A stretch of DNA of 11,141 nucleotides from a virus (lineage: Duplodnaviria > Heunggongvirae > Uroviricota > Caudoviricetes), in the IMG/VR virus record IMGVR_UViG_2563366948_000006, positions 1 to 11,141 of that record, one strand, 5' to 3'. Below, in pieces: positions 1-11,141 of the stretch (position 1 is its first letter; each line of letters opens with the position of its first letter). The position numbers and the translations under genes are program-made. Below the pieces are notes generated by a model. It was not told where the DNA came from and ran no database searches. It was given only the letters and a program-made list of their open reading frames with translations.

Positions 1-303
1 TTCTCCCAAACCAAGGTTTTCGAGAGCCGTTTTCACTGTGCCATCCGATTTGATATCGCCAAACGGATTCTTGCGGCTTAACAGCAGCGCACGAAGCGCG
101 GTAAGCAACTGGTCGTGCCGCGCCTTCTCCAGACTGGCACCGGATGTCTCCACCACGCTGCAAAGCTCTTCCTGCAACATGTCAAAGTAGTCATCATCCA
201 GATCGGTGGCAGGCGTGCCTGTCTGGGGGTTACCACGGGTAAAACCGTTTTTACCCGCGCCGAACTTATCCTTCTGCGCGGTTTTCGTGTCTATACGATG
301 CAT
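1..303 (-). CDS. Phage tail fibre protein, N-terminal fragment (gene runs off the window at position 1)
   Basis: Reverse-strand ORF with ATG at 303-301 and GGAG 7 nt upstream; translates [101 protein letters not shown]. The GNPxTGTPAT...QEEL stretch matches, from recall, the conserved N-terminal region of enterobacterial phage tail fibres. Absent from the ORF track because it is incomplete. Confidence 0.5.
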
Positions 304-306
304 GGA

Positions 307-1362
307 TTACTCCGGATATTTAAAAATTACGTAGGTATGCGACGGGCAGAGTTTGTTAAGCACGCACTCGACAACGGTGTCGCCCCAGATAAACAAGCGA
401 CGGTTAAGCTCCTGCTCCCAGTTCGTCACCCACGGCATCATCGTGTAGCGGACAAACTGAATCGCCTGCGCAGAAATATTGGAGAAGGTGGCTTTTTCGA
501 GGTCATTAATCATGTGCGCAGGAATATTGAAAATACCGGCAATCATTGAACGGTTCAGTTTCATCATGTCAATGATCTGAGCGTCAACTGGCGACACAGT
601 CAGTGCCTTGTAATCCAGATCGGCTGGCAGCAGCATGGTTTTGTTTTCCTGGCTGCGTAACGCCTGCGATGCCTTCTGCCACTGATCTTTAAGCCAGCCC
701 CAGCTGTCCTTATTGAGTCCGCTTTTAACGGATACTATCCCCGCCGGACGGGCATTACCGCTGAAGAAGCTTTCTGTGTATTTCTGACCGCTCATCCCCA
801 TGCCTATTGTTTCGGCATGTTGCATAATCGGACTCAGCCCCATCTTCTGATTATTACCCAGCGCACGGATGTGGATCATATCGTCGGGGCTGATCGCAAA
901 CGCCCCATATTCGTTGTACAAACCGTAGGTGTATCGACCACCAGTATTCATCAGCGTCGTTTCCCACGGCATACAGCAATCCAGGGATATGACTTCACCG
1001 CGACGATTACGTTTCACCCAGGTATACCCATTCCCCCAGCCAAGGATGTGACGTTGCTTCAGTTCGCGCCATTTGTAACTGGTTTGCCAGGTATTGGGCT
1101 CATCATGAACCAGATAAAACGCCGGATGATCGCGTGCGGGCTCAACCTTCCCATTGTGCCTGCGCATAACATGCAACGGCATCTGGGCAAGGCTGGAAGA
1201 CAGGACATAGATACAGGAATACACCGCAGCCAGTTTCATCGAAGTTTCAGGACTGACATAAACGTCTGCCCGGAACAGCCCATCAGTATCAACGGCATCC
1301 CCGGTTATCGGGGTGGAAGGATTCTCCAGTGATTTACTTCTGAACAGAGCATCAAGCAGCAC
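307..1362 (-). CDS. Phage portal protein, HK97 family; probably C-terminally truncated
   Basis: Translation contains portal-like blocks [62 protein letters not shown] and [16 protein letters not shown], and sits just downstream of TerL. Start placed at GTG 1362 (AAGGGGG-type SD upstream); the longest ORF starts at GTG 1392 and an in-frame ATG is at 1239. The protein ends about 25 aa after the [10 protein letters not shown] block, whereas HK97-family portals as I recall them continue well beyond it. Confidence 0.65.
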
Positions 1363-1513
1363 GCGTCCCCCTTCTGGCCATAGCCAGTGCACCCACCAGC
1401 AGTAAACCGCCGGACAGCATCAGAGCCGGAGCCATACCAAACTGCAGGTAAAACCCGCACGTAAGCAGGCCAAAACCAGCCAGCCCGATAACATCAGCAA
1501 TTAGTGATTTCAT
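1352..1513 (-). CDS. Small hydrophobic protein (53 aa, two predicted TM helices), function unknown
   Basis: Not in the ORF track. ATG at 1513-1511 overlaps the TerL stop (ATGA overlap); translates [53 protein letters not shown], stop at 1354-1352. Overlaps the portal start by about 11 nt. Confidence 0.4.
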
Positions 1514-3243
1514 AGAATTAAGAGAGCATCGTCCGGATCAAGAGATGAGAGGAAATCGTCGGGTTCTTTGAGCATTGCCCGACCGATCGCCATAATCAGT
1601 GCAACCGCACCATCGATTTTGTTTTCCGCCTGCTCCTTGACAGGCTTCACCACATCATCGTTACCCGGAATGGTTTTGCCGACCACGTTGCCGATACACC
1701 AGGTCATGATGGGATTGCCATCATGATGAAAGCGCCCCGATTCAATTGCCGCTTCCAGCTCTTTCATCGGGTCGGACATGTTGGTGTAGTTCTGAATGAT
1801 GGTGACGGGGTTCAGGTCTTCATCAGCAAGGTCATGTGACAGCCCGGTCGCCCCGAAGGGGTCGATGGGTGACTCGCTGACCGGGCTGATTTTGTTCGCC
1901 GCTTTGGCCTCCTCGAGGATGTAGCGATAATCCACCTCCGCACCATCGGTAACGGTCAGAACCCCCATCTCCACCCATTTCTGAAAGCGTTCGGCTGTCC
2001 GGCGATCTTCATTTTTCTCGACGCTGTACACCGTGTCATACGGTACCCAGAAGCGCGGAGCCACACTGTAGTAATGCGTTTTACCGTCAATCTCGCGGGT
2101 ATAAAGTCGCGCCATACTGTTCATATCCAGCTTACGCGCCAGGTCAAAGGCCAGGATGCACGGTTGCCCCTCGAACTGCTCAAGGGACAGTGATTTATCC
2201 TCGCAGCTCTGCCAGCTCACCAGGTTGAAATACGCCGAACGTGCCGACACCCAGATATTGAGGTGTTTTGTTTTAAAGACGTTTGCCAGACGGGCGTTAT
2301 TTTTCGCACGCTGCTGCTGACTTAACAAAAATTCGCGATAAACCGACACGCCAATATTTGGATTGGCTTTTTCCAGCACCTGCGGGTCGATCCAGTCGTC
2401 ACCTTCATCAACGGTATAGATGATCCCGAACAGTTCATCGTTAGGCACCGAGCCGTTGAGCATCTCGATGACTTCCCGCCGCTTGTCGTAGCACGGCCCC
2501 TCAATGTTGTACCCGGCGGTGGTGATGGCCCACATCAGTGGCTGACGTCGCGCCCCCATCCCGGTAAGCATTGTGGTATAAAGCGCATCGGTGGCATGCT
2601 CGTGATATTCATCAACCACGGCACAGTGGGGTGATGAACCATCACCGGGGTTGCCGATCAGCGGTTCAAACCGCGCGCCATCCTCCGGACGGTTCATGTT
2701 TGAGGCGTTAACCTCAATCCCGAACGCTTCCGTCAGCATGGGTGTGCGTTTACACATCAGTCGCGCCGGACGAAAAACTTCCCACGCCTGTTTCTCTGTC
2801 GTGGCACCGGAATACACTTCCGCGCCAAACTCGTTATCACAGGCAAAACAATACAGGGCAACACCGGCAGAGATTGCCGATTTGCCGTTCTTACGGGGGA
2901 TTTCGGTATACACCTCCCGGAAGCGGCGCAGCCGGGAGCCTTTATTGACCCAGCCAAACGCACAGCAGATCACAAAGAGCTGCCACGGCTCCAGCGTGAT
3001 GGGCATCCGTTTGAATGCCCACTCCCCCTTGGTGTGTGGCAACAGCTGAATAAATTTCGCGGCCCGTTCAGCCAGGTCCTTGTCGAAGCGGTAACGAAAC
3101 GACTTACTTTTTTCCGCCATCAGGTCATCAAGATGGCGCTGGCAGGCCTGAATCACAAACTGGCAGGCCACAATCTTTCCGCGCACGACATCACGGGCAT
3201 ACTGATTAGCAGCATTTACGTTGGGGTAAGATTTCCGGCTCAT
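1510..3243 (-). CDS. terL: Phage terminase large subunit (TerL, Terminase_1-type ATPase plus nuclease)
   Basis: 577-aa ORF, ATG at 3243 overlapping the TerS stop (ATGA). N-terminus [30 protein letters not shown] and overall length and content are typical of HK97-like large terminases; followed by the portal. Confidence 0.88.
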
Positions 3244-3734
3244 GACTCGATGATTTTCAGAAACGGGTTAGTGGCTTTCTTCTGCCCCGCCAGGCCAATC
3301 AGACGCTGGCGGCTGCTGGGGTCGAGTCCGAGCATTGCACCCGTGCTGCTCATCTCGGACTCCTGTTCTTTTTTGGCGGTCAGCTCCGGATTTTTGACCA
3401 TGCCGCCCATTGCACCGGTGATGGTGTTGCCCTGTCTGGCAATATTTTTCACGGCACGTCGCCAGAACTCATAGGCCACGCACCACCGCTCAAGTACCGC
3501 CAGGTCAGTCACGCACAGCAGGCCCTGACCGCAGAGTTCTTTGGTTGTCAGTTGCCACATGATCGTGGCGAGAGGGAGCTCTTCTTCTGTGAACCACTCC
3601 GGTGGCTCAACACCTTTGATGGGCGTAAAAACAGGTTCATCTTTATTCAGGGCTCGCTTGCCGGGGTTTCCGGCCAGCGCCTTGCGCGCCGTTGGCTTGG
3701 GGCGACGCCCGGAACGCCCCGCCGTTCCAGCCAT
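3240..3734 (-). CDS. terS: Phage terminase small subunit, P27 family
   Basis: Translation from ATG 3734 (AGGAG 8 nt upstream) begins [34 protein letters not shown], the characteristic P27-family TerS N-terminus (GRPxKPT...L.GNPGKR.LN). The track ORF begins 3 codons earlier at a GTG (3743). Confidence 0.8.
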
Positions 3735-3743
3735 ATGCGGCAC

Positions 3744-3860
3744 TCCTGGTTAAATTTCATTTTTCGCGGGTATAAAAAAACGATGGGGCGGGCAGTCCGG
3801 AAGGCGCGCGGTCGCAGAGATTTGACCTCCCCCTCCCCAGTCTGATGATGACATTAATTA
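3744..3860. other. HNH-TerS intergenic region; candidate cos (cohesive end) site
   Basis: 117-bp non-coding gap between HNH and TerS containing a GC-rich block (plus strand GGGGCGGGCAGTCCGGAAGGCGCGCGGTCGCAG, then GACCTCCCCCTCCCCAG). In HK97-type phages cos lies between the HNH gene and terS. Exact cut sites cannot be read from sequence. Confidence 0.3.
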
Positions 3861-4211
3861 TCACTTGAGCCGCTCACGCGCGGTCTTCGCTGCGTGACAC
3901 GACCAGCACAGGCTTTCAAGGTTGCTGTCTTCATCAGTACCGCCGTGGGCCTTCGCCTTGATGTGGTCCACGCAGGACGCCTGCTTCACTATCGCCTGCC
4001 GTAGATGGTTCTGACACAGCCCTTTGTCGCGCTTAAGTATCCGCTCCCGGATGACTTCCCACTTTGTTCCGTATCCTCGCTGCTGCCGTGATTGACCAGG
4101 CTTGTAGGACTTCCAGCCTTCACCTTTGTGATTTTCACAGTAGCCAGATGGGTCTGTTGTGGTGTTGCGACAGCCGCGAACACGGCAAGCCTTTGGTGTG
4201 CGCGGTGGCAT
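3861..4211 (-). CDS. HNH endonuclease (packaging-associated)
   Basis: ATG at 4211 with GGGGAG upstream; 116 aa; cysteine-rich N-terminus (CRVRGCRN...CENH) and HNH core CQNH...VDHIKAKAHGGTDEDSNLESLCWSCHAAKT; located immediately upstream of TerS. The track ORF starts 13 codons earlier at a GTG. Confidence 0.82.
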   Translation of the reverse strand: MPPRTPKACRVRGCRNTTTDPSGYCENHKGEGWKSYKPGQSRQQRGYGTKWEVIRERILKRDKGLCQNHLRQAIVKQASCVDHIKAKAHGGTDEDSNLESLCWSCHAAKTARERLK

Positions 4212-4878: not shown

Positions 4879-5415
4879 TCAATTGTGGGGGATAGCGTTA
4901 TTTGACTCTCTCAACGAGTCGTAAATACGTTCACACGTCATCCCGGCGGTGTAGCGTTCGTCAGCGATTCCAGCATAACGTTTAGCTTCTGCTGCAATAT
5001 CTCCGAGCATGTCGGCGAACATTCCGGCGTCGGCGTCGGTTGTTTTGCTTCGGACGGCAGCGGCAAGATCAGCGGTGTGCTTTGCGGCGTCCAGGCGTGC
5101 GGCAAGCTTTGTTGCTTCGGTACGCAACTGGCTAACAGTGGCAGACAGGCCAGCAGCAGTGGCAGCAGATTTAGCGGCTTGTGCTTGTGCATCTTTTACA
5201 GCCTCATCACGGGCAATTATGCGCCCTTGTTCAATCCAGCGTGCGGCAGTCTGCGCGTTCGCTTCCTGTGAAGATTCCATGCTATTGTGGTCAGCCCACT
5301 TCTTTTGCCAGCCCCGCTCACTCCAGATGTTCCCGGCAAGAAATGCACCAGCCAACATCAGCAAAACAATGATTGTTTTCCACCGCGCCTGAACAAAAGC
5401 AAAGACCGCTGTCAT
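4879..5415 (-). CDS. Rz: Rz-like i-spanin (inner-membrane spanin subunit)
   Basis: ATG at 5415 overlaps the endolysin stop (ATGA). N-terminal TM helix ([19 protein letters not shown]) followed by an Ala/Gln/Lys-rich coiled-coil-like periplasmic domain; position right after the endolysin; contains an embedded lipoprotein ORF. Confidence 0.72.
4938..5192 (-). CDS. Rz1: Rz1-like o-spanin (outer-membrane lipoprotein), embedded in Rz in another frame
   Basis: ATG at 5192; [23 protein letters not shown] carries a signal peptide with lipobox (LLAS-C), followed by a proline-rich mature region; wholly inside the Rz coding region, the classical embedded arrangement. Confidence 0.65.
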
Positions 5416-6029: not shown

Positions 6030-6310
6030 TAGTGCCTCAGATGATCAACCAGACGTGCAACGTTGCCTCTGACGGCCACCAGCACGGAAAGAAAAATAGT
6101 GTTCGCCACGATAATGGGCCATGAGGAATGGGGATAAATCCCACAGAGATAGGCCAACGGAACAGCACTGTATGTAACAGTAATCAGCCAGGCTAAACGT
6201 GAAACCCAAGGACGATGCCGCGAATAACCACGACGATAAAACATCAGAGTAATAACAACACAAGCACATAACAGCGCATTTATAGTTGCTGTCGGGTCAT
6301 TTAGCTCCAC
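6029..6310 (-). CDS. Putative holin (93 aa, three predicted TM helices)
   Basis: GTG start at 6310 with GGAGG 5 nt upstream; hydrophobic segments INALLCACVVITLMFY, LAWLITVTYSAVPLAYLCGIY and WPIIVANTIFLSVLVAV; charged C-terminus; immediately upstream of, and coupled to, the endolysin gene. Confidence 0.55.
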   Translation of the reverse strand: MELNDPTATINALLCACVVITLMFYRRGYSRHRPWVSRLAWLITVTYSAVPLAYLCGIYPHSSWPIIVANTIFLSVLVAVRGNVARLVDHLRH

Positions 6311-6626
6311 CTGAACCTCCCCGGCGCGTTATGAGCGCCACCAGCGAGCCGATATCCTGATTATTCAGGAACGTCAGGATTTTAACGGCTAAAGCAGAGA
6401 CGATTACGGCACCAATAGCATCCAGAGGTTTATCACTGTATCCGGTCAAGTGCGCCAGCTTGGAGCCAACCAACCCAGAGCAAAGGATCCCGGCAATATA
6501 TGACACGATAAAATATGCCAGTCGGCGCGATGCACTCAGATCTGCTGCTGTTGCTATGTAGAATACCGTCCTTTTTACAAAACAGAGAAGAGCATCACCG
6601 GACGACGGGCTCATAACCCAATCCAT
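6297..6626 (-). CDS. Holin-like membrane protein (start uncertain: GTG 6641, ATG 6626 or ATG 6614)
   Basis: At least two TM segments (LAYFIVSYIAGILCSGLVG, LDAIGAVIVSALAVKILTFL) and a charged C-terminal tail QDIGSLVALITRRGGSGGAK that resembles, from recall, the C-terminus of lambda S; two closely spaced in-frame Met codons (MDWVMSPSS) could allow a dual-start arrangement. No strong SD at any candidate start. Confidence 0.5.
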   Translation of the reverse strand: MDWVMSPSSGDALLCFVKRTVFYIATAADLSASRRLAYFIVSYIAGILCSGLVGSKLAHLTGYSDKPLDAIGAVIVSALAVKILTFLNNQDIGSLVALITRRGGSGGAK

Positions 6627-6665
6627 CCGGGCGGCTGCCACCGCAGGTGTTCTTCTCTGTTTTGT
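6577..6665. repeat. 18-bp inverted repeat (17/18 match) separated by 53 bp at the lysis / early-operon junction
   Basis: Plus strand 6577-6594 ACAAAACAGAGAAGAGCA; the reverse complement of 6648-6665 is ACAAAACAGAGAAGAACA (15 bp perfect core). Left arm lies in the 5' end of the holin-like ORF, right arm in the divergent intergenic region upstream of yfdP. Confidence 0.7.
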
Positions 6666-6713
6666 GGAGAAACTAATCGGCCTTGCAGGGTCGATATGAT
6701 GAGGAGCAGCAAA

Positions 6714-7076
6714 ATGGCTAGCGAACGCAGTACTGATGTGCAGGCATTTATCGGGGAGCTGGACGGCGGCGTATTTGAAACCAAAATCGGCGCAGTTCTC
6801 AGTGAAGTCGCTTCCGGTGTGATGAACACGAAAACCAAAGGTAAGGTCTCACTCAACCTGGAAATCGAACCATTTGATGAGAACCGTGTGAAAATCAAAC
6901 ACAAACTCTCATATGTTCGCCCGACTAACCGCGGGAAAATTTCCGAAGAAGACACCACCGAAACGCCGATGTATGTCAATCGCGGTGGTCGCCTGACTAT
7001 TCTGCAGGAAGACCAGGGACAGTTACTGACTCTTGCCGGTGAACCTGACGGAAAACTCCGCGCAGCAGGTCGTTAA
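6714..7076 (+). CDS. yfdP: YfdP-like conserved prophage early protein (120 aa), function unknown
   Basis: ATG at 6714 with GAGGAG upstream gives 120 aa (MASERSTDVQAFIGELDGG...); first gene of a same-strand operon whose sizes (120, 274, 178, 120 aa) and order match E. coli K-12 KplE1 yfdP-yfdQ-yfdR-yfdS as I recall them. Confidence 0.55.
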   Translation: MASERSTDVQAFIGELDGGVFETKIGAVLSEVASGVMNTKTKGKVSLNLEIEPFDENRVKIKHKLSYVRPTNRGKISEEDTTETPMYVNRGGRLTILQEDQGQLLTLAGEPDGKLRAAGR

Positions 7077-7141
7077 TATCGTTTTTAATTAACTGATTAT
7101 TTATCTCATCACTGAATATCTTTATATAGTGAGGACTTATT

Positions 7142-7966
7142 ATGTCTCAGAACTTAGACGCAACCGCAATTAATCAAATCCATGCCCTTATTTCTGCTCA
7201 GGGTGTTAATGAAATTATCAGTAAGATTGGTGCCGATGCTGTGGCATTGCCTGAGAATTTCCGCATTCATGATCTGGAAAAATTTAATTTAAATCGCTTC
7301 CGTTTCCGTGGTGCGCTTTCCACTGCCAGCATCGATGACTTTACCCGTTATTCTAAAGATCTTGCAGATGAAGGCACCCGCTGCTTTATCGATGCTGATA
7401 ATATGCGTGCCGTCAGTGTGCTTAACCTGGGTACTATTGATGAACCAGGTCACGCAGATAACACCGCCACACTCAAACTGAAAAAGACAGCACCGTTCTC
7501 TGCTCTGTTGTCTGTTAACGGCGAGCGTAACTCCCAGAAGTCACTGGCAGAATGGATTGAAGACTGGGCCGACTATCTTGTGGGCTTTGATGCTAATGGT
7601 GACGCTATTCAGGCAACAAAAGCGGCTGCGGCTGTCCGTAAAATCACGATTGAAGCAAACCAGACCGCTGATTTTGAAGATAATGACTTCAGCGGCAAAC
7701 GCTCCCTGATGGAGTCTGTCGAAGCGAAGACCAAAGACATTATGCCAGTGGCATTTGAATTTAAATGCGTTCCGTTTGAAGGTCTGAAAGAACGTCCGTT
7801 TAAATTACGCCTCAGTATTATCACTGGCGATCGTCCTGTACTGGTTCTGCGCATTATTCAGCTGGAGGCGGTGCAGGAAGAAATGGCTAACGAATTTCGT
7901 GATCTGCTTGTTGAGAAATTCAAGGACAGCAAAGTAGAAACCTTTATTGGTACTTTCACCGCCTGA
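7142..7966 (+). CDS. yfdQ: YfdQ-like protein (DUF2303-type, 274 aa), function unknown
   Basis: ATG at 7142 with GAGGA 7 nt upstream; 274 aa beginning [20 protein letters not shown]; size and position match K-12 YfdQ from recall. Confidence 0.6.
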
Positions 7967-7978
7967 TTTCATTACTGC

Positions 7979-8000
7979 AAATGCCCCTGCGGGGGCATTT
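7979..8000 (+). terminator. Perfect 9-bp stem-loop between yfdQ and yfdR (possible partial terminator or attenuator)
   Basis: AAATGCCCC-TGCG-GGGGCATTT starts 13 nt after the yfdQ stop; GC core with an AU-rich 3' side (AUUUAU) but no long U-tract. Confidence 0.35.
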
Positions 8001-8093
8001 ATGGAAACGTAATTTACTCAATAATCGCCGGATGGTGAGGGATTCTTTTTACCAGAATTCAGCGCGGTGCAGCGCATATACGTGGAGAACAAA

Positions 8094-8630
8094 ATGTCAT
8101 TTATTAAAACTTTTTCCGGGAAGCATTTTTATTATGACAGGATAAATAAAGACGACATCGATATTAACGATATCGCGGTTTCCCTTTCAAATATCTGTCG
8201 CTTTGCCGGTCATCTTTCGCACTTCTACAGCGTCGCCCAACATGCGGTTCTTTGCAGCCAGCTGGTGCCGCAGGAATTTGCTTTTGAAGCGTTAATGCAT
8301 GATGCAACAGAAGCGTATTGCCAAGACATCCCCGCACCACTGAAACGACTTCTTCCTGACTATAAACGGATGGAAGAAAAAATAGACGCCGTAATCCGTG
8401 AGAAATACGGGTTACCTCCTGTTATGAGCACGCCAGTGAAATATGCCGATCTCATCATGCTGGCAACCGAACGCCGCGATCTCGGGCTTGATGATGGCTC
8501 TTTCTGGCCTGTGCTGGAAGGTATCCCGGCAACAGAGATGTTCAACGTGATTCCACTGGCTCCAGGCCATGCCTACGGGATGTTTATGGAACGCTTTAAC
8601 GAATTATCGGAGTTACGCAAATGCGCATGA
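8094..8630 (+). CDS. yfdR: HD-domain phosphohydrolase, YfdR-like (178 aa)
   Basis: ATG at 8094 with GGAGAA upstream gives 178 aa; HD-domain metal-binding signature visible (GHLSHFYSVAQH ... LMHDATEAY). The track ORF starts 9 codons earlier at 8067. Confidence 0.7.
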   Translation: MSFIKTFSGKHFYYDRINKDDIDINDIAVSLSNICRFAGHLSHFYSVAQHAVLCSQLVPQEFAFEALMHDATEAYCQDIPAPLKRLLPDYKRMEEKIDAVIREKYGLPPVMSTPVKYADLIMLATERRDLGLDDGSFWPVLEGIPATEMFNVIPLAPGHAYGMFMERFNELSELRKCA

Positions 8631-8983
8631 ATGTTTTCGAAATGGAAGGGTTTCTTCGCGGGAAATGTGTACCGCGAGATCTGAAAGTGAACGAAACAAA
8701 TGCTGAGTACCTGGTACGTAAATTCGACGCGCTTGAAGCTAAATGTGCGGCACTGGAAAGCAAAATAATACCAGTGTCAGCTGAACTGCCACCAGCAAAT
8801 GAAAGTGTTCTGTTATTTGATGCTAACGGAGAAGGCTGGCTGATTGGCTGGCGTTCTCTCTGGTACACCTGGGGACAAAAAGAAACCGGAGAATGGCAGT
8901 GGACATTTCAGGTCGGGGACCTTGAAAACGTCAATATCACTCACTGGGCAGTAATGCCGAAAGCACCAGAGACTAAGAAATGA
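8621..8983 (+). CDS. yfdS: YfdS-like protein (120 aa, Trp-rich C-terminal domain), function unknown
   Basis: Start overlaps the yfdR stop; 120 aa; C-terminus WLIGWRSLWYTWGQKETGEWQWTFQ...THWAVMP; stop overlaps the next ATG (ATGA). Confidence 0.55.
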   Translation: MRMNVFEMEGFLRGKCVPRDLKVNETNAEYLVRKFDALEAKCAALESKIIPVSAELPPANESVLLFDANGEGWLIGWRSLWYTWGQKETGEWQWTFQVGDLENVNITHWAVMPKAPETKK

Positions 8984-9195
8984 GCGTGATAAAAACTCAT
9001 ACAGGAATTGTTATCACCCGAGACGGTGAAAAGCGGATGAAATTACATTCCACTGAAACGTCCTGGGTTGCCGGACGTTGTGAATCCTACGACAAAAAGA
9101 CTGGTTACCGTTGGGGGGCACCTAACATGCGTCGCCGTCTGCTACTGGACAGCATCAGGCCAATAAAACAGGTAGCAACCAGGGAACAAAATTAA
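8980..9195 (+). CDS. Small basic protein (71 aa), function unknown
   Basis: ATG at 8980 translationally coupled to the yfdS stop; MSVIKTHTGIVITRDGEKRMKLHSTETSWVAGRCESYDKKTGYRWGAPNMRRRLLLDSIRPIKQVATREQN; lies between the yfd-like genes and xis. Confidence 0.5.
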   Translation: MSVIKTHTGIVITRDGEKRMKLHSTETSWVAGRCESYDKKTGYRWGAPNMRRRLLLDSIRPIKQVATREQN

Positions 9196-9254
9196 TTATC
9201 AGGACTGGAATTTGATATTACTGCCCGTGTGCAGCGGGCTAAGTGGAGAAACAT

Positions 9255-9461
9255 ATGCTGAACCTCGATTGTGTTCCAATCTCAACTTATTGCAAAGAAA
9301 CTGGCGAAACTCCTGAAGCAATAAACAAACGTGTACAGCGCGGTGTTTGGCGTGAAGGTGTTCAGGTTTTAAAGGTTGAAGGCGTTAAGGAGAGGTGGAT
9401 TGATCTTAGTGAGGTTGCAAAATGGGCCAGACAAAACTGCTCAAACTACCGCGCGGCGTAA
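9255..9461 (+). CDS. xis: Putative excisionase (Xis-like DNA-binding protein)
   Basis: ATG at 9255 with GGAG 6 nt upstream; 68 aa (MLNLDCVPISTYCKETGETPEAINKRVQRGVWREGVQ...); immediately upstream of the integrase and overlapping it by 40 nt, the canonical xis-int arrangement. The track ORF starts 4 codons earlier at a GTG. Confidence 0.55.
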   Translation: MLNLDCVPISTYCKETGETPEAINKRVQRGVWREGVQVLKVEGVKERWIDLSEVAKWARQNCSNYRAA

Positions 9462-10597
9462 CAATCAGGAAACACCGCCAGGGCGAAACGATCAATATAA
9501 CTTTCACCTACAAAGGAGTTAAATGTCGTGAGCCTCTTTCCAATCTGGAAGTAATACCAAAGAACATAAAATACGCCGAGCGCACACTCGGCGAAATTCA
9601 TAATAAGATCGAAAGGGGAACATTCATTTATGCGGAATATTTTCCCCGTTCTGCTCGTTTGAAAATTTTTGGTAATGCTGCTGCAGGCAAAACGGTAAAA
9701 ATGTACCTGGACGAATACCTTGAAATCTGCGAAACGAGAAAACTTTCACCCTCTACGATTGGTGGTTATAAAAAATGCCGTAGTGCGTTAGCCTCACTCC
9801 ACATTTGCCCTGCAAGTGAATTAACACCAGCAATCCTGAAAGCGTGGATTCAAAGCCAGAAAACGACCTCAAAAACAATTCGCAACCAGTTATCTTTCCT
9901 GCGGTCAGCACTTGATGAAGCCGTAACCGATGGGGTACTTCAAATTAACCCCGTATCGTTGGTAACTGCTTCGCGCTACCAAAGTGATAAGTCAGAAGCA
10001 GAAAGCAGCTACGTGGTTGATCCGCTATCACCAGCAGAAGTTGATGCATTACTAGCAGCAGCCGGAAACAAACAATGGGAAAATCTGTTCCGGTTCGCTA
10101 TACATACAGGCCTGCGTAGTTCTGAATTATGTGCCCTTCGATGGCGTGATATCGACTTTGTTGGAAAAACTGCCCATGTCCAGAGCGCAAGTGTTGTCGG
10201 TGTTATCAAAGGAACAAAGACAAAAGCCGGTACTCGTAAAGTTGAACTGACAGAAGAGGCAATGTTGGCGCTGATAAATCAGAAGCCATTTACATTCATG
10301 AAGGATGCTACTGTCTTTGAAGATCCAAAGACAAACAAACCGTGGGCCAGCGCCGATGCGATAAGGAAAAAAGCGTGGATACCAACCTTACGTAAAGCAG
10401 GTATCCGGTACCGTAACCCATATCAGACCAGGCATACATTCGCCACCAGCCATATCAGCCGTGGTGCGAACCTGTTCTGGCTTGCAGGCCAGATGGGCCA
10501 TAAGGGACCAGAAATGCTATTTCGTCACTATGGCAGTTACCTTGCTGCATATGACGGACATACCGCTAAAAATACTAATGATACAAAACAGGCTTGA
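9422..10597 (+). CDS. int: Tyrosine-type site-specific integrase with N-terminal arm-binding domain
   Basis: 391 aa; N-terminal LPRGVTIRKHRQGETINITFTYKGVKCREPL arm-binding-like region; C-terminal catalytic domain with the tyrosine-recombinase R...HxxR...Y pattern (LRSSELCALRWRDID, NPYQTRHTFATSHISRGANLFWLAGQMGH, RHYGSY); last gene before a GC shift. Confidence 0.9.
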   Translation: MGQTKLLKLPRGVTIRKHRQGETINITFTYKGVKCREPLSNLEVIPKNIKYAERTLGEIHNKIERGTFIYAEYFPRSARLKIFGNAAAGKTVKMYLDEYLEICETRKLSPSTIGGYKKCRSALASLHICPASELTPAILKAWIQSQKTTSKTIRNQLSFLRSALDEAVTDGVLQINPVSLVTASRYQSDKSEAESSYVVDPLSPAEVDALLAAAGNKQWENLFRFAIHTGLRSSELCALRWRDIDFVGKTAHVQSASVVGVIKGTKTKAGTRKVELTEEAMLALINQKPFTFMKDATVFEDPKTNKPWASADAIRKKAWIPTLRKAGIRYRNPYQTRHTFATSHISRGANLFWLAGQMGHKGPEMLFRHYGSYLAAYDGHTAKNTNDTKQA

Positions 10598-10641
10598 TGC
10601 TGCCCGAACAAATAGCCACTGAAACCTGATAAAAAGTTATT

Positions 10642-10676
10642 TGTGATGTGGTTATGTTCGTCATATCCACATCATA
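10642..10676. repeat. Imperfect 15-bp-arm palindrome (13/15) downstream of int
   Basis: TGTGATGTGGTTATG - ttcgt - CATATCCACATCATA, with a perfect GATGTGG / CCACATC core. Confidence 0.6.
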
Positions 10677-10763
10677 CATACTTAAACATAAGGCACTTTT
10701 TACCTTGCAAAAATTCGAACCAAGCATATATGTTATAGGTGAACTTGGTACTCAGGCAGCTGT

Positions 10764-10775
10764 CCTAGTACTAGG
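10764..10775. repeat. Perfect 12-bp palindrome CCTAGTACTAGG
   Basis: Self-complementary 12-mer in the int-distal non-coding region; possible operator or recombinase site. Confidence 0.5.
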
Positions 10776-10790
10776 AACACGCGGGAAATC

Positions 10791-10820
10791 TTGGAGCCAG
10801 TACGTAGATTATGGTAAAAT
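10791..10820 (+). promoter_or_regulatory. Putative sigma70 promoter (extended -10) for the downstream 82-aa gene
   Basis: TTGGAG (-35), 18-bp spacer, TGgTAAAAT extended -10; flanked by a 7-bp GC-rich dyad (CGCGGGA 10780-10786 / TCCCGCG 10820-10826) and followed by a CCCCG-N5-CGGGG hairpin in the predicted leader, then AAGGAGG and ATG. Confidence 0.4.
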
Positions 10821-10892
10821 CCCGCGCCCCGTTCTGCGGGGAGCAATAAATGCCTCAAAAGGATACATTGGGGGGACTGAAAGGAGGTCTTT

Positions 10893-11141
10893 ATGTCAGA
10901 ACTAGTCATGAAGATGTTTGGGCTGAATGATTTGGTCAAAGGCGGACAAGCCATGGCCGATCGTTTGAACAAATCTGGTGTTAAAAACATCAAGGTCGTA
11001 GGGCGTGGTGCAGTTATTGTAGACCCATCTACTGACCCAGAAAAAATCACTCAGCTTAGGAAAGCAGCTAGAAAATTCGTCGAGCAGGATGCAAAAGCTG
11101 TTGCAGCCGCTAAAGCTAACTCAATGGACAATGACGACTAA
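10893..11141 (+). CDS. Small hydrophilic protein (82 aa), function unknown
   Basis: ATG at 10893 preceded by a perfect AAGGAGG SD at optimal spacing; MSELVMKMFGLNDLVKGGQAMADRLNKSGVKNIKVVGRGAVIVDPSTDPEKITQLRKAARKFVEQDAKAVAAAKANSMDNDD; stop is the last codon of the window; region visibly lower in GC than the prophage genes. Confidence 0.6.
   Translation: MSELVMKMFGLNDLVKGGQAMADRLNKSGVKNIKVVGRGAVIVDPSTDPEKITQLRKAARKFVEQDAKAVAAAKANSMDNDD

Follow-up and report, generated by a model that had tools for sequence, protein, structure and literature searches.

Gene content of the window and the portal-like ORF

The window analysed here, a stretch of phage-derived DNA of 11,141 nucleotides, opens with the 5' part of a tail-fibre gene related to SfV orf21 and StfP (1..303, minus strand), of which 101 codons are present before the gene runs off the left window end. 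This 101-codon ORF matches the tail fiber protein family phrog_1396 (E=6.5e-53), in agreement with the earlier note on this DNA, which had called the gene tail-fibre-like, and at the DNA level it is 96-98% identical to annotated fibre genes. The GGAG ribosome-binding site of the fibre gene (310..313, minus strand; GGAGTAATCCATG) precedes the ATG by 6 nt and falls within the last codons of ymfQ, as in the native arrangement, and the stretch is conserved both in SfV and in an apparently complete prophage, hereafter L003, that resides at thrW in E. coli GZ2408P (NZ_CM172482).

Next to the fibre gene lies an ORF of 351 codons (1362..307, minus strand) that is read from a GTG at 1362, the start picked by the gene callers and, in relatives, by RefSeq; the longest version of this portal-like ORF begins at GTG 1392 and comprises 361 aa. 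The ORF terminates with TAA at 309-307, followed on the minus strand by TCC (306-304) and by the fibre ATG (303-301). The earlier note had described a portal ORF that loses its family-like sequence, stops at 307-309 and is followed, after a GGAG, by the fibre ATG at 303, and all these coordinates proved correct, on the minus strand. The 5' portion of the ORF (392..1362, minus strand) belongs to an HK97-family portal gene and, by PF04860, TIGR01537 and DNA identity, corresponds to residues 1-324 of 408. For PF04860, the match reaches 274.1 bits (cut-off, 39.1) and extends from profile position 2 to 290 of 321, and TIGR01537 (portal_HK97) scores 255.6 bits against a cut-off of 112.05, with a match that covers profile positions 1-290 of 343 and ends exactly at residue 324, whereas the intact 408-aa relative is matched over the entire profile (1-343 of 343). 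The family similarity accordingly ends where the earlier note had placed its loss, with both models stopping at profile position 290, and neither is covered end to end by the fusion protein.

What follows residue 324 is recognizable as the end of a different protein. Comparison of the 351-aa product with PHROGs assigns residues 2-324 to the portal family phrog_12 and residues 320-351 to the end of the baseplate wedge family phrog_203 (E=1.3e-9), and the C-terminus of L003 YmfQ, translated in its own frame, is identical to the tail of the fusion. The ORF thus joins portal residues 1-324 in frame to YmfQ residues 168-194; the ymfQ remnant (307..389, minus strand), derived from a Mu gp48-like baseplate wedge gene, consists of the last 27 codons and the native TAA in the native frame. 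Because the tail is the in-frame YmfQ C-terminus, the boundary between ymfQ and the fibre gene, with its stop at 307-309, its GGAG and its 3-nt spacer, is the native one. In the protein comparison, 84 of the 408 portal residues are gone, within the range of 80-100 missing C-terminal residues raised by the earlier note, and 27 YmfQ residues stand in their place. Upstream, the portal gene has the expected context of terL and a small ymfR-like ORF; downstream, it is followed by the fibre gene, without a prohead protease or capsid gene. The fusion product is a portal fragment and not a complete member of the HK97-family portals.

Portal proteins share a conserved fold whose C-terminal domain is the crown. 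The portal of HK97, gp3, belongs to the same family as the window portal (TIGR01537 above the cut-off), and the intact relative aligns with it (PDB 8CEZ) over HK97 residues 45-404 (E=1.3e-38), which maps the portal break to approximately HK97 residue 343. Residues 32-398 are ordered in the cryo-EM model of the HK97 portal (PMC10359639), a study that does not state at which residues the domains begin and end. Compared with gp3, the window protein lacks the remaining ordered C-terminal region past residue ~343 and instead has 27 foreign residues, so judging from the general portal fold the fragment is most likely missing the crown in its entirety as well as the end of the wing. Given the absence of the C-terminal part including the crown, the chimera is not expected to form a working portal.

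Beyond the portal start, the packaging genes follow on the same strand. A conserved 53-aa membrane-like ORF of the YmfR type (1352..1513, minus strand; full-length match to phrog_7105, E=9e-22) overlaps both terL and the portal gene; it is annotated in relatives, and ymfR of e14 is found at the same position. This hydrophobic ORF also shows a weak match to a membrane-protein moron family. The terminase large subunit (1510..3243, minus strand; 577 aa, the same length as in L003; PF03354 and PF20441), the P27-family small subunit (3240..3734, minus strand; 164 aa, PF05119) and the HNH endonuclease by the terminase genes (3861..4211, minus strand; 116 aa as in relatives, PF01844) are all full length. 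The retained lysis set consists of an intact second holin-family gene, a GH19 endolysin and Rz/Rz1. The Rz-like spanin gene (DUF2514, 178 aa) occupies window positions 4879-5415 on the minus strand, and an out-of-frame ORF embedded in it (4938-5192, minus strand) carries a lipoprotein-type signal (LLASC) typical of the Rz1 o-spanin. The first holin gene survives as a 3' remnant (6297..6563, minus strand) that keeps residues 38-128 of 128, by comparison with L003 and PF16931; its N-terminal 37 residues are replaced by unrelated sequence (called region 6297-6641). Only 143 nt separate the holin remnant from yfdP, the first of the int-proximal early-left genes (6714..10597, plus strand), which comprise yfdP, yfdQ, the 5'-deoxynucleotidase gene yfdR, three small ORFs including a xis-like one, and a tyrosine integrase (9422-10597, plus strand) that is annotated in relatives. 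The yfdP-region genes are 98% identical to SfV orf32-orf29 and to L003. The stretch from int to the fibre cassette is devoid of capsid, protease and tail genes and likewise of genes for a repressor or for replication.

The two junctions and the missing blocks

When 5,426 complete E. coli genomes and 50,697 phage records were searched with megablast, the left part of the window split into two segments. Positions 390-1600 correspond to portal and terL, with identities of up to 99.8% to annotated portal genes and 97.9% to SfV, and positions 1-391 to the end of ymfQ and the beginning of the fibre gene, with identities of 96-98%. The breakpoint is sharp: portal homology stops at 390, and ymfQ and fibre homology begins at 391. 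BLAST end points and three-way alignments place this junction (junction 1) at 390..391, where a 2-bp TA is common to both parental sequences; as the TA occupies the same codon phase in portal and ymfQ, the fusion is in frame. With DNA identities of 96-99.8% to known prophages, we regard the similarity as unambiguous homology that excludes a chance pattern.

In SfV (NC_003444) and in L003, the sequences that flank junction 1 are collinear and in the same orientation, and are separated by 13,172 and 13,169 bp, respectively, which are missing from the window. Because the flanks keep the order and orientation seen in the relatives, a deletion fits and an inversion is excluded. The block missing relative to these phages comprises 16 head and tail genes in full and two further genes in part. 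It begins with the 3' end of the portal gene and ends with the first 167 codons of ymfQ; the genes in between encode the prohead protease and major capsid protein, the head-tail connector, a head closure protein, a neck protein and the tail terminator, a DUF2635 protein, the sheath and tube, a tail assembly protein, the tape measure, the DNA-circularisation protein and baseplate proteins P, V, gp46 and gp47. The full portal-to-fibre block is present in SfV and in the E. coli prophages of NZ_CM172482 and NZ_CP087290, and the synteny of these three agrees with the expectation voiced in the earlier note that protease, capsid, connector and tail genes normally lie between portal and fibre. The converse scenario, in which the 13-kb block would be a recent insertion in the relatives, is contradicted by the fact that both broken genes belong to complete conserved families.

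If the window came from a functional phage whose portal is naturally short and whose genes are arranged in an atypical order, this would account for the intact reading frame, but for nothing else. Both sides of junction 1 occur together (coverage of at least 80%) in none of the 5,426 complete E. coli genomes and none of the 50,697 phage records, so relatives that place a fibre gene directly after the portal, which the earlier note had named as evidence against a deletion, were not found in either set; an exact-match scan with 44 nt of the junction against one genome per species (GTDB) also returned none. Moreover, the absence of capsid, protease, tail, repressor and replication genes between int and the fibre cassette is at odds with a functional phage, and the tail of the ORF is recognizable as the C-terminus of another gene. 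The probability of a natural gene order is vanishingly small, and we consider this reading refuted.

We favor, with high confidence, the view that the window is part of a cryptic SfV/e14-like prophage remnant in which an internal deletion of ~13 kb fused portal to ymfQ just before the fibre gene. Under this scenario, one illegitimate recombination event between sites sharing 2 bp would have removed ~13.2 kb inside the late operon, from portal codon 324 to ymfQ codon 167, and a join that falls in frame by chance (1 in 3) would have yielded a portal(1-324)::YmfQ(168-194) chimera that terminates with the stop codon native to ymfQ, 3 nt ahead of the native fibre start. A deletion that fused the portal to the region just upstream of the fibre gene is what the earlier note had proposed; this idea holds, with the refinement that the region in question is the in-frame C-terminus of ymfQ.

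The same arrangement could have arisen if two prophages, such as tandem lysogens at one site, recombined illegitimately, so that the int-to-portal and the ymfQ-to-pin parts would come from different parents. This phage group is highly mosaic, the identity to L003 is uneven (98.4% on the portal side and 96.2% on the fibre side), and the locus hosts several different phages with this integrase, all of which would be compatible with two parents. However, the order and orientation are exactly collinear with those of single intact relatives, and no att or int remnant is present at junction 1. A join of two prophages thus appears unlikely, and the exact collinearity with single relatives makes one internal deletion the simplest account; the outcome of such a join would be the same in any case, namely, a defective remnant without head and tail genes.

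A second discontinuity (junction 2) lies at 6564..6571: the homology to the lysis cassette of L003 ends at 6571, and the homology to the region upstream of yfdP begins at 6564, with either an exact TAC or, allowing one mismatch, TACnGTCC shared between the two sides. Compared with L003, approximately 9.13 kb are missing at this point, including the first 37 codons of holin 1, a hypothetical gene, Q, the DUF968, KilA-N and RusA genes, a LexA-family gene, PerC, the replication-region genes, ymfL, and the cro-like and cI-like genes. None of the complete E. coli genomes spans junction 2. A second deletion of ~9.1 kb would have removed the immunity, replication and antitermination region together with the 5' end of the first holin gene. 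As a consequence of this second deletion, the lysis genes are not all intact and most of the early genes are gone, so the claim of the earlier note that lysis and early genes are kept stands in part: the second holin, the GH19 endolysin, Rz/Rz1 and the int-proximal stretch from yfdP to int are retained, but the 5' end of the first holin gene is not, and cI, cro, the replication genes and Q are lost at 6564-6571. A scan for sigma-70-like promoters around junction 2 yielded no site, which is a weak negative. The remnant is without immunity, replication and antitermination genes and without an obvious late promoter, and with neither Q nor a late promoter, the late operon is probably orphaned transcriptionally.

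No undeleted ancestor with the same integrase, the same site and the same late region was found, and the best intact relative resides at thrW and encodes a different integrase; therefore, the deletion sizes and lists of lost genes hold relative to these relatives, within a mosaic phage group.

Spread of the fusion allele and its chromosomal setting

An exact-protein look-up, the only means by which the fusion allele was found, retrieved the 351-aa protein from 22 independently assembled contigs (NCBI, ENA and Logan samples), among them GCA_000408345.1 (scaffold KE137010.1), several Logan-assembled runs, ENA metagenome assemblies and one human-gut metagenome. The window is 100% identical to positions 11362..222 of the KE137010.1 locus (L005). 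Contigs from eight places differ from the window by 0-2 SNPs over each shared stretch, and five of the eight cover between 8.8 kb and the full 11.1 kb. These data bear on the possibility that the portal/fibre adjacency stems from a chimeric contig or a collapsed repeat, for which it could be said that the source is a scaffolded draft with a gap right at the left window edge and that the fibre N-terminus is repeated in many prophages, in up to three places per genome. Against this, junction 1 lies 390 nt inside contiguous sequence, and it is identical in the 22 contigs from different projects and sources, including human-gut metagenomes and contigs that cross both sides. The recurrence of the same junction in independent contigs rules out an assembly artefact, which we accordingly treat as refuted and extremely improbable. 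The 0-2 SNPs among the compared contigs point to one recent, clonally inherited event, and, given this near-identity of the copies, the persistence of the allele says nothing about selection.

In the metagenome scaffold L008, terL is called as two genes, which is due to a 10-N scaffold gap and not to ongoing decay. In ERR9716583 (L009 1-2568), the remnant is interrupted at window position ~8795, within the ORF that follows yfdR, and because the interrupting sequence encodes a Mu-type transposase (HTH_Tnp_Mu, DDE_2 and Mu-transpos_C), a Mu-like transposable phage has probably inserted into the remnant in this sample.

The left window edge adjoins a scaffold gap (a run of N at L005 11364-13118) located at the fibre/tfa inversion cassette. 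A further contig, L006 (11060-13455), fills this gap and contains a full fibre gene of 220 aa, two tfa genes and an alternative fibre C-terminus on the other strand, whereas the pin invertase/resolvase is left as a 42-aa fragment, so any fibre switching would need an invertase in trans. Several other contigs likewise end ~310 nt into the fibre gene, and among those that continue the fibre C-termini differ (207, 220 and 273 aa); these differences may come from repeats shared with other prophages.

The element is integrated in the E. coli chromosome between the ssrA/smpB side and the ypjA side, with tmRNA, smpB, bamE and recN-like genes nearby on KE137010.1. The tmRNA gene is located 6 kb past the left window end; ARAGORN detected no tRNA or tmRNA in the window. 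No tRNA gene, tmRNA gene or att-type repeat was found next to the integrase, and comparison of the int-side and ssrA-side flanks of L005 for att-type direct repeats revealed no exact repeat of at least 12 nt. Past the integrase (window 10600-11141; L013 21994-24570), there are two conserved hypothetical genes of 82 and 272 aa, beyond which lies, depending on the strain, ypjA or another integrase-bearing island. At the opposite end, the pin fragment is followed by a type IV methyl-directed restriction enzyme of the GmrSD type, with a full-length PADLOC match, and by AbiTii (L005 13424-15313 and 16207-17127), after which come the tmRNA gene and smpB. Because e14 carries mcrA at the same position, this arrangement suggests that SfV/e14-like prophages may have a slot for defence cargo at this end.

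The same integrase and flank are present at ~100% identity in 17 complete E. coli genomes, with other contents. E. coli TA8571 has, at the same integrase, a full lambdoid prophage with a different late region, and E. coli PCP06173 (NZ_CM129873, L004 3100-15100) harbors, at the same site and with the same integrase, a relative that has decayed independently, with different breakpoints. In the latter, a terL gene without its C-terminus abuts or is fused to a portal C-terminal fragment without the N-terminus, and the capsid gene is truncated; this remnant also contains an IS3 insertion and a methyltransferase/HD-hydrolase fusion junction.

The in-frame chimera might have been kept as useful, for example, as a dominant-negative portal subunit that would spoil procapsid assembly in incoming SfV/e14-like phages. 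The ORF is intact and in frame, its 324 portal residues are ~99% identical to circulating portals, the remnant sits beside the type IV restriction enzyme and AbiTii, and the allele occurs in many samples. Yet one in three random joins would be in frame, and recent clonal descent of copies that are 0-2 SNPs apart accounts for the persistence of the allele. Furthermore, Q has been deleted together with the late promoter region, and the scan detected nothing resembling a promoter. Other remnants keep different pieces of the portal, with the N-terminal 127 aa left in e14 but a C-terminal piece in PCP06173, and the chimera has no PADLOC match. We consider retention for such a use very unlikely. It is equally doubtful that a chimera made by read-through transcription co-assembles with the nearly identical portals of SfV/e14-like phages that superinfect the cell or reside in it, and poisons the dodecamer, which would make the remnant a decoy-type exclusion element next to the type IV restriction and AbiTii cargo. 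Under the favored reading of a twice-deleted prophage, the element appears to be an inert, recently formed remnant that is unable to make virions.

Comparison with SfV and e14

The SfV/e14-like phages, to which we assign the window, are lambdoid phages that combine an HK97-type head with a Mu-type contractile tail. SfV modules follow one another in the window in the SfV order, with identities of 97.7% (1-391), 97.6% (390-3801) and 98.1% (6564-8974). With both SfV and the GZ2408P prophage, the window shares the HNH endonuclease gene, terS, terL and portal codons 1-324 at 97.6-98.4% DNA identity, the ymfQ 3' end and fibre 5' end at 96-98%, and yfdP, yfdQ, yfdR and the adjoining downstream gene at 98%, in the same gene order, but, unlike the window, these two have the 13.2 kb of head and tail genes as well as a complete regulatory region. 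SfV further differs in its lysis cassette, whose endolysin is of the GH24 type, against GH19 in the window cassette with its two holin-family genes, in carrying gtr genes where the window element has the pin/fibre-inversion cassette, and in its integrase and att site. The element is a phage-derived block with an integrase in a bacterial chromosome; 16 head and tail genes and parts of portal and ymfQ are absent, it has neither cI and cro nor Q and the replication genes, and one of its holin genes is truncated, all of which identifies it as a cryptic prophage. We also considered a phage satellite of the PICI or cf-PICI type and rejected it: neither the window nor L005 or L006 contains a repressor, primase/replicase or capsid gene.

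Among described elements, e14 of E. coli K-12 comes closest, as it belongs to the same phage group and shows the same decay pattern; the comparison presented here is based on the RefSeq annotation and on our own alignments. Mehta, Casjens and Krishnaswamy reportedly described e14 in 2004 as a deleted SfV-like prophage. Its genes are ordered ymfN, ymfR, beeE, jayE (a pseudogene), ymfQ, stfP, tfaP, tfaE, stfE, pinE and mcrA. Like the window element, e14 has an N-terminal portal fragment immediately followed by baseplate remnants, ymfQ, a fibre gene, tfa genes and pin, with all head and tail genes missing. The break points are not the same. BeeE of e14 aligns to portal residues 1-127, so that the break lies near residue 130, and homology to SfV resumes inside gp47 (jayE), at SfV position 15305, leaving ymfQ whole, whereas in the window element the portal breaks at residue 324 and the sequence resumes, in frame, at a point 84 nt short of the ymfQ end. 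With the portal allele of e14, identity is only ~30%. In addition, e14 contains a second internal fusion, ymfN, which is a replication/terminase chimera. The two elements also differ in what else they have lost: e14 lacks the lysis genes and terS and keeps cI/cro, whereas the window element keeps lysis and packaging genes and lacks cI/cro/Q. The integration sites are icd for e14 and the ssrA-ypjA region for the window element, and the defence cargo beyond pin consists of mcrA in the former and of the type IV restriction enzyme and AbiTii in the latter. The deletions in e14 and in the window element, with their different breakpoints, are independent events.

For annotation, the 351-aa 'phage portal protein' of these assemblies should be read as a pseudogene in which portal and baseplate sequences are fused, and completeness scoring of the region should return an incomplete prophage. 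The two junctions provide a base-pair map of two apparently illegitimate deletions, with 2 and 3 bp shared, respectively, in an SfV/e14-like prophage, and these deletions are a parallel, independent counterpart to the beeE-jayE and ymfN fusions of K-12 e14. This phage group seems to decay repeatedly to remnants that keep int and xis, the fibre cassette and the defence cargo. Because the same block of head and tail genes is gone from e14, with breakpoints of its own, the element described here is a further instance of a well-known object, a defective prophage shaped by internal deletions in the course of routine decay.
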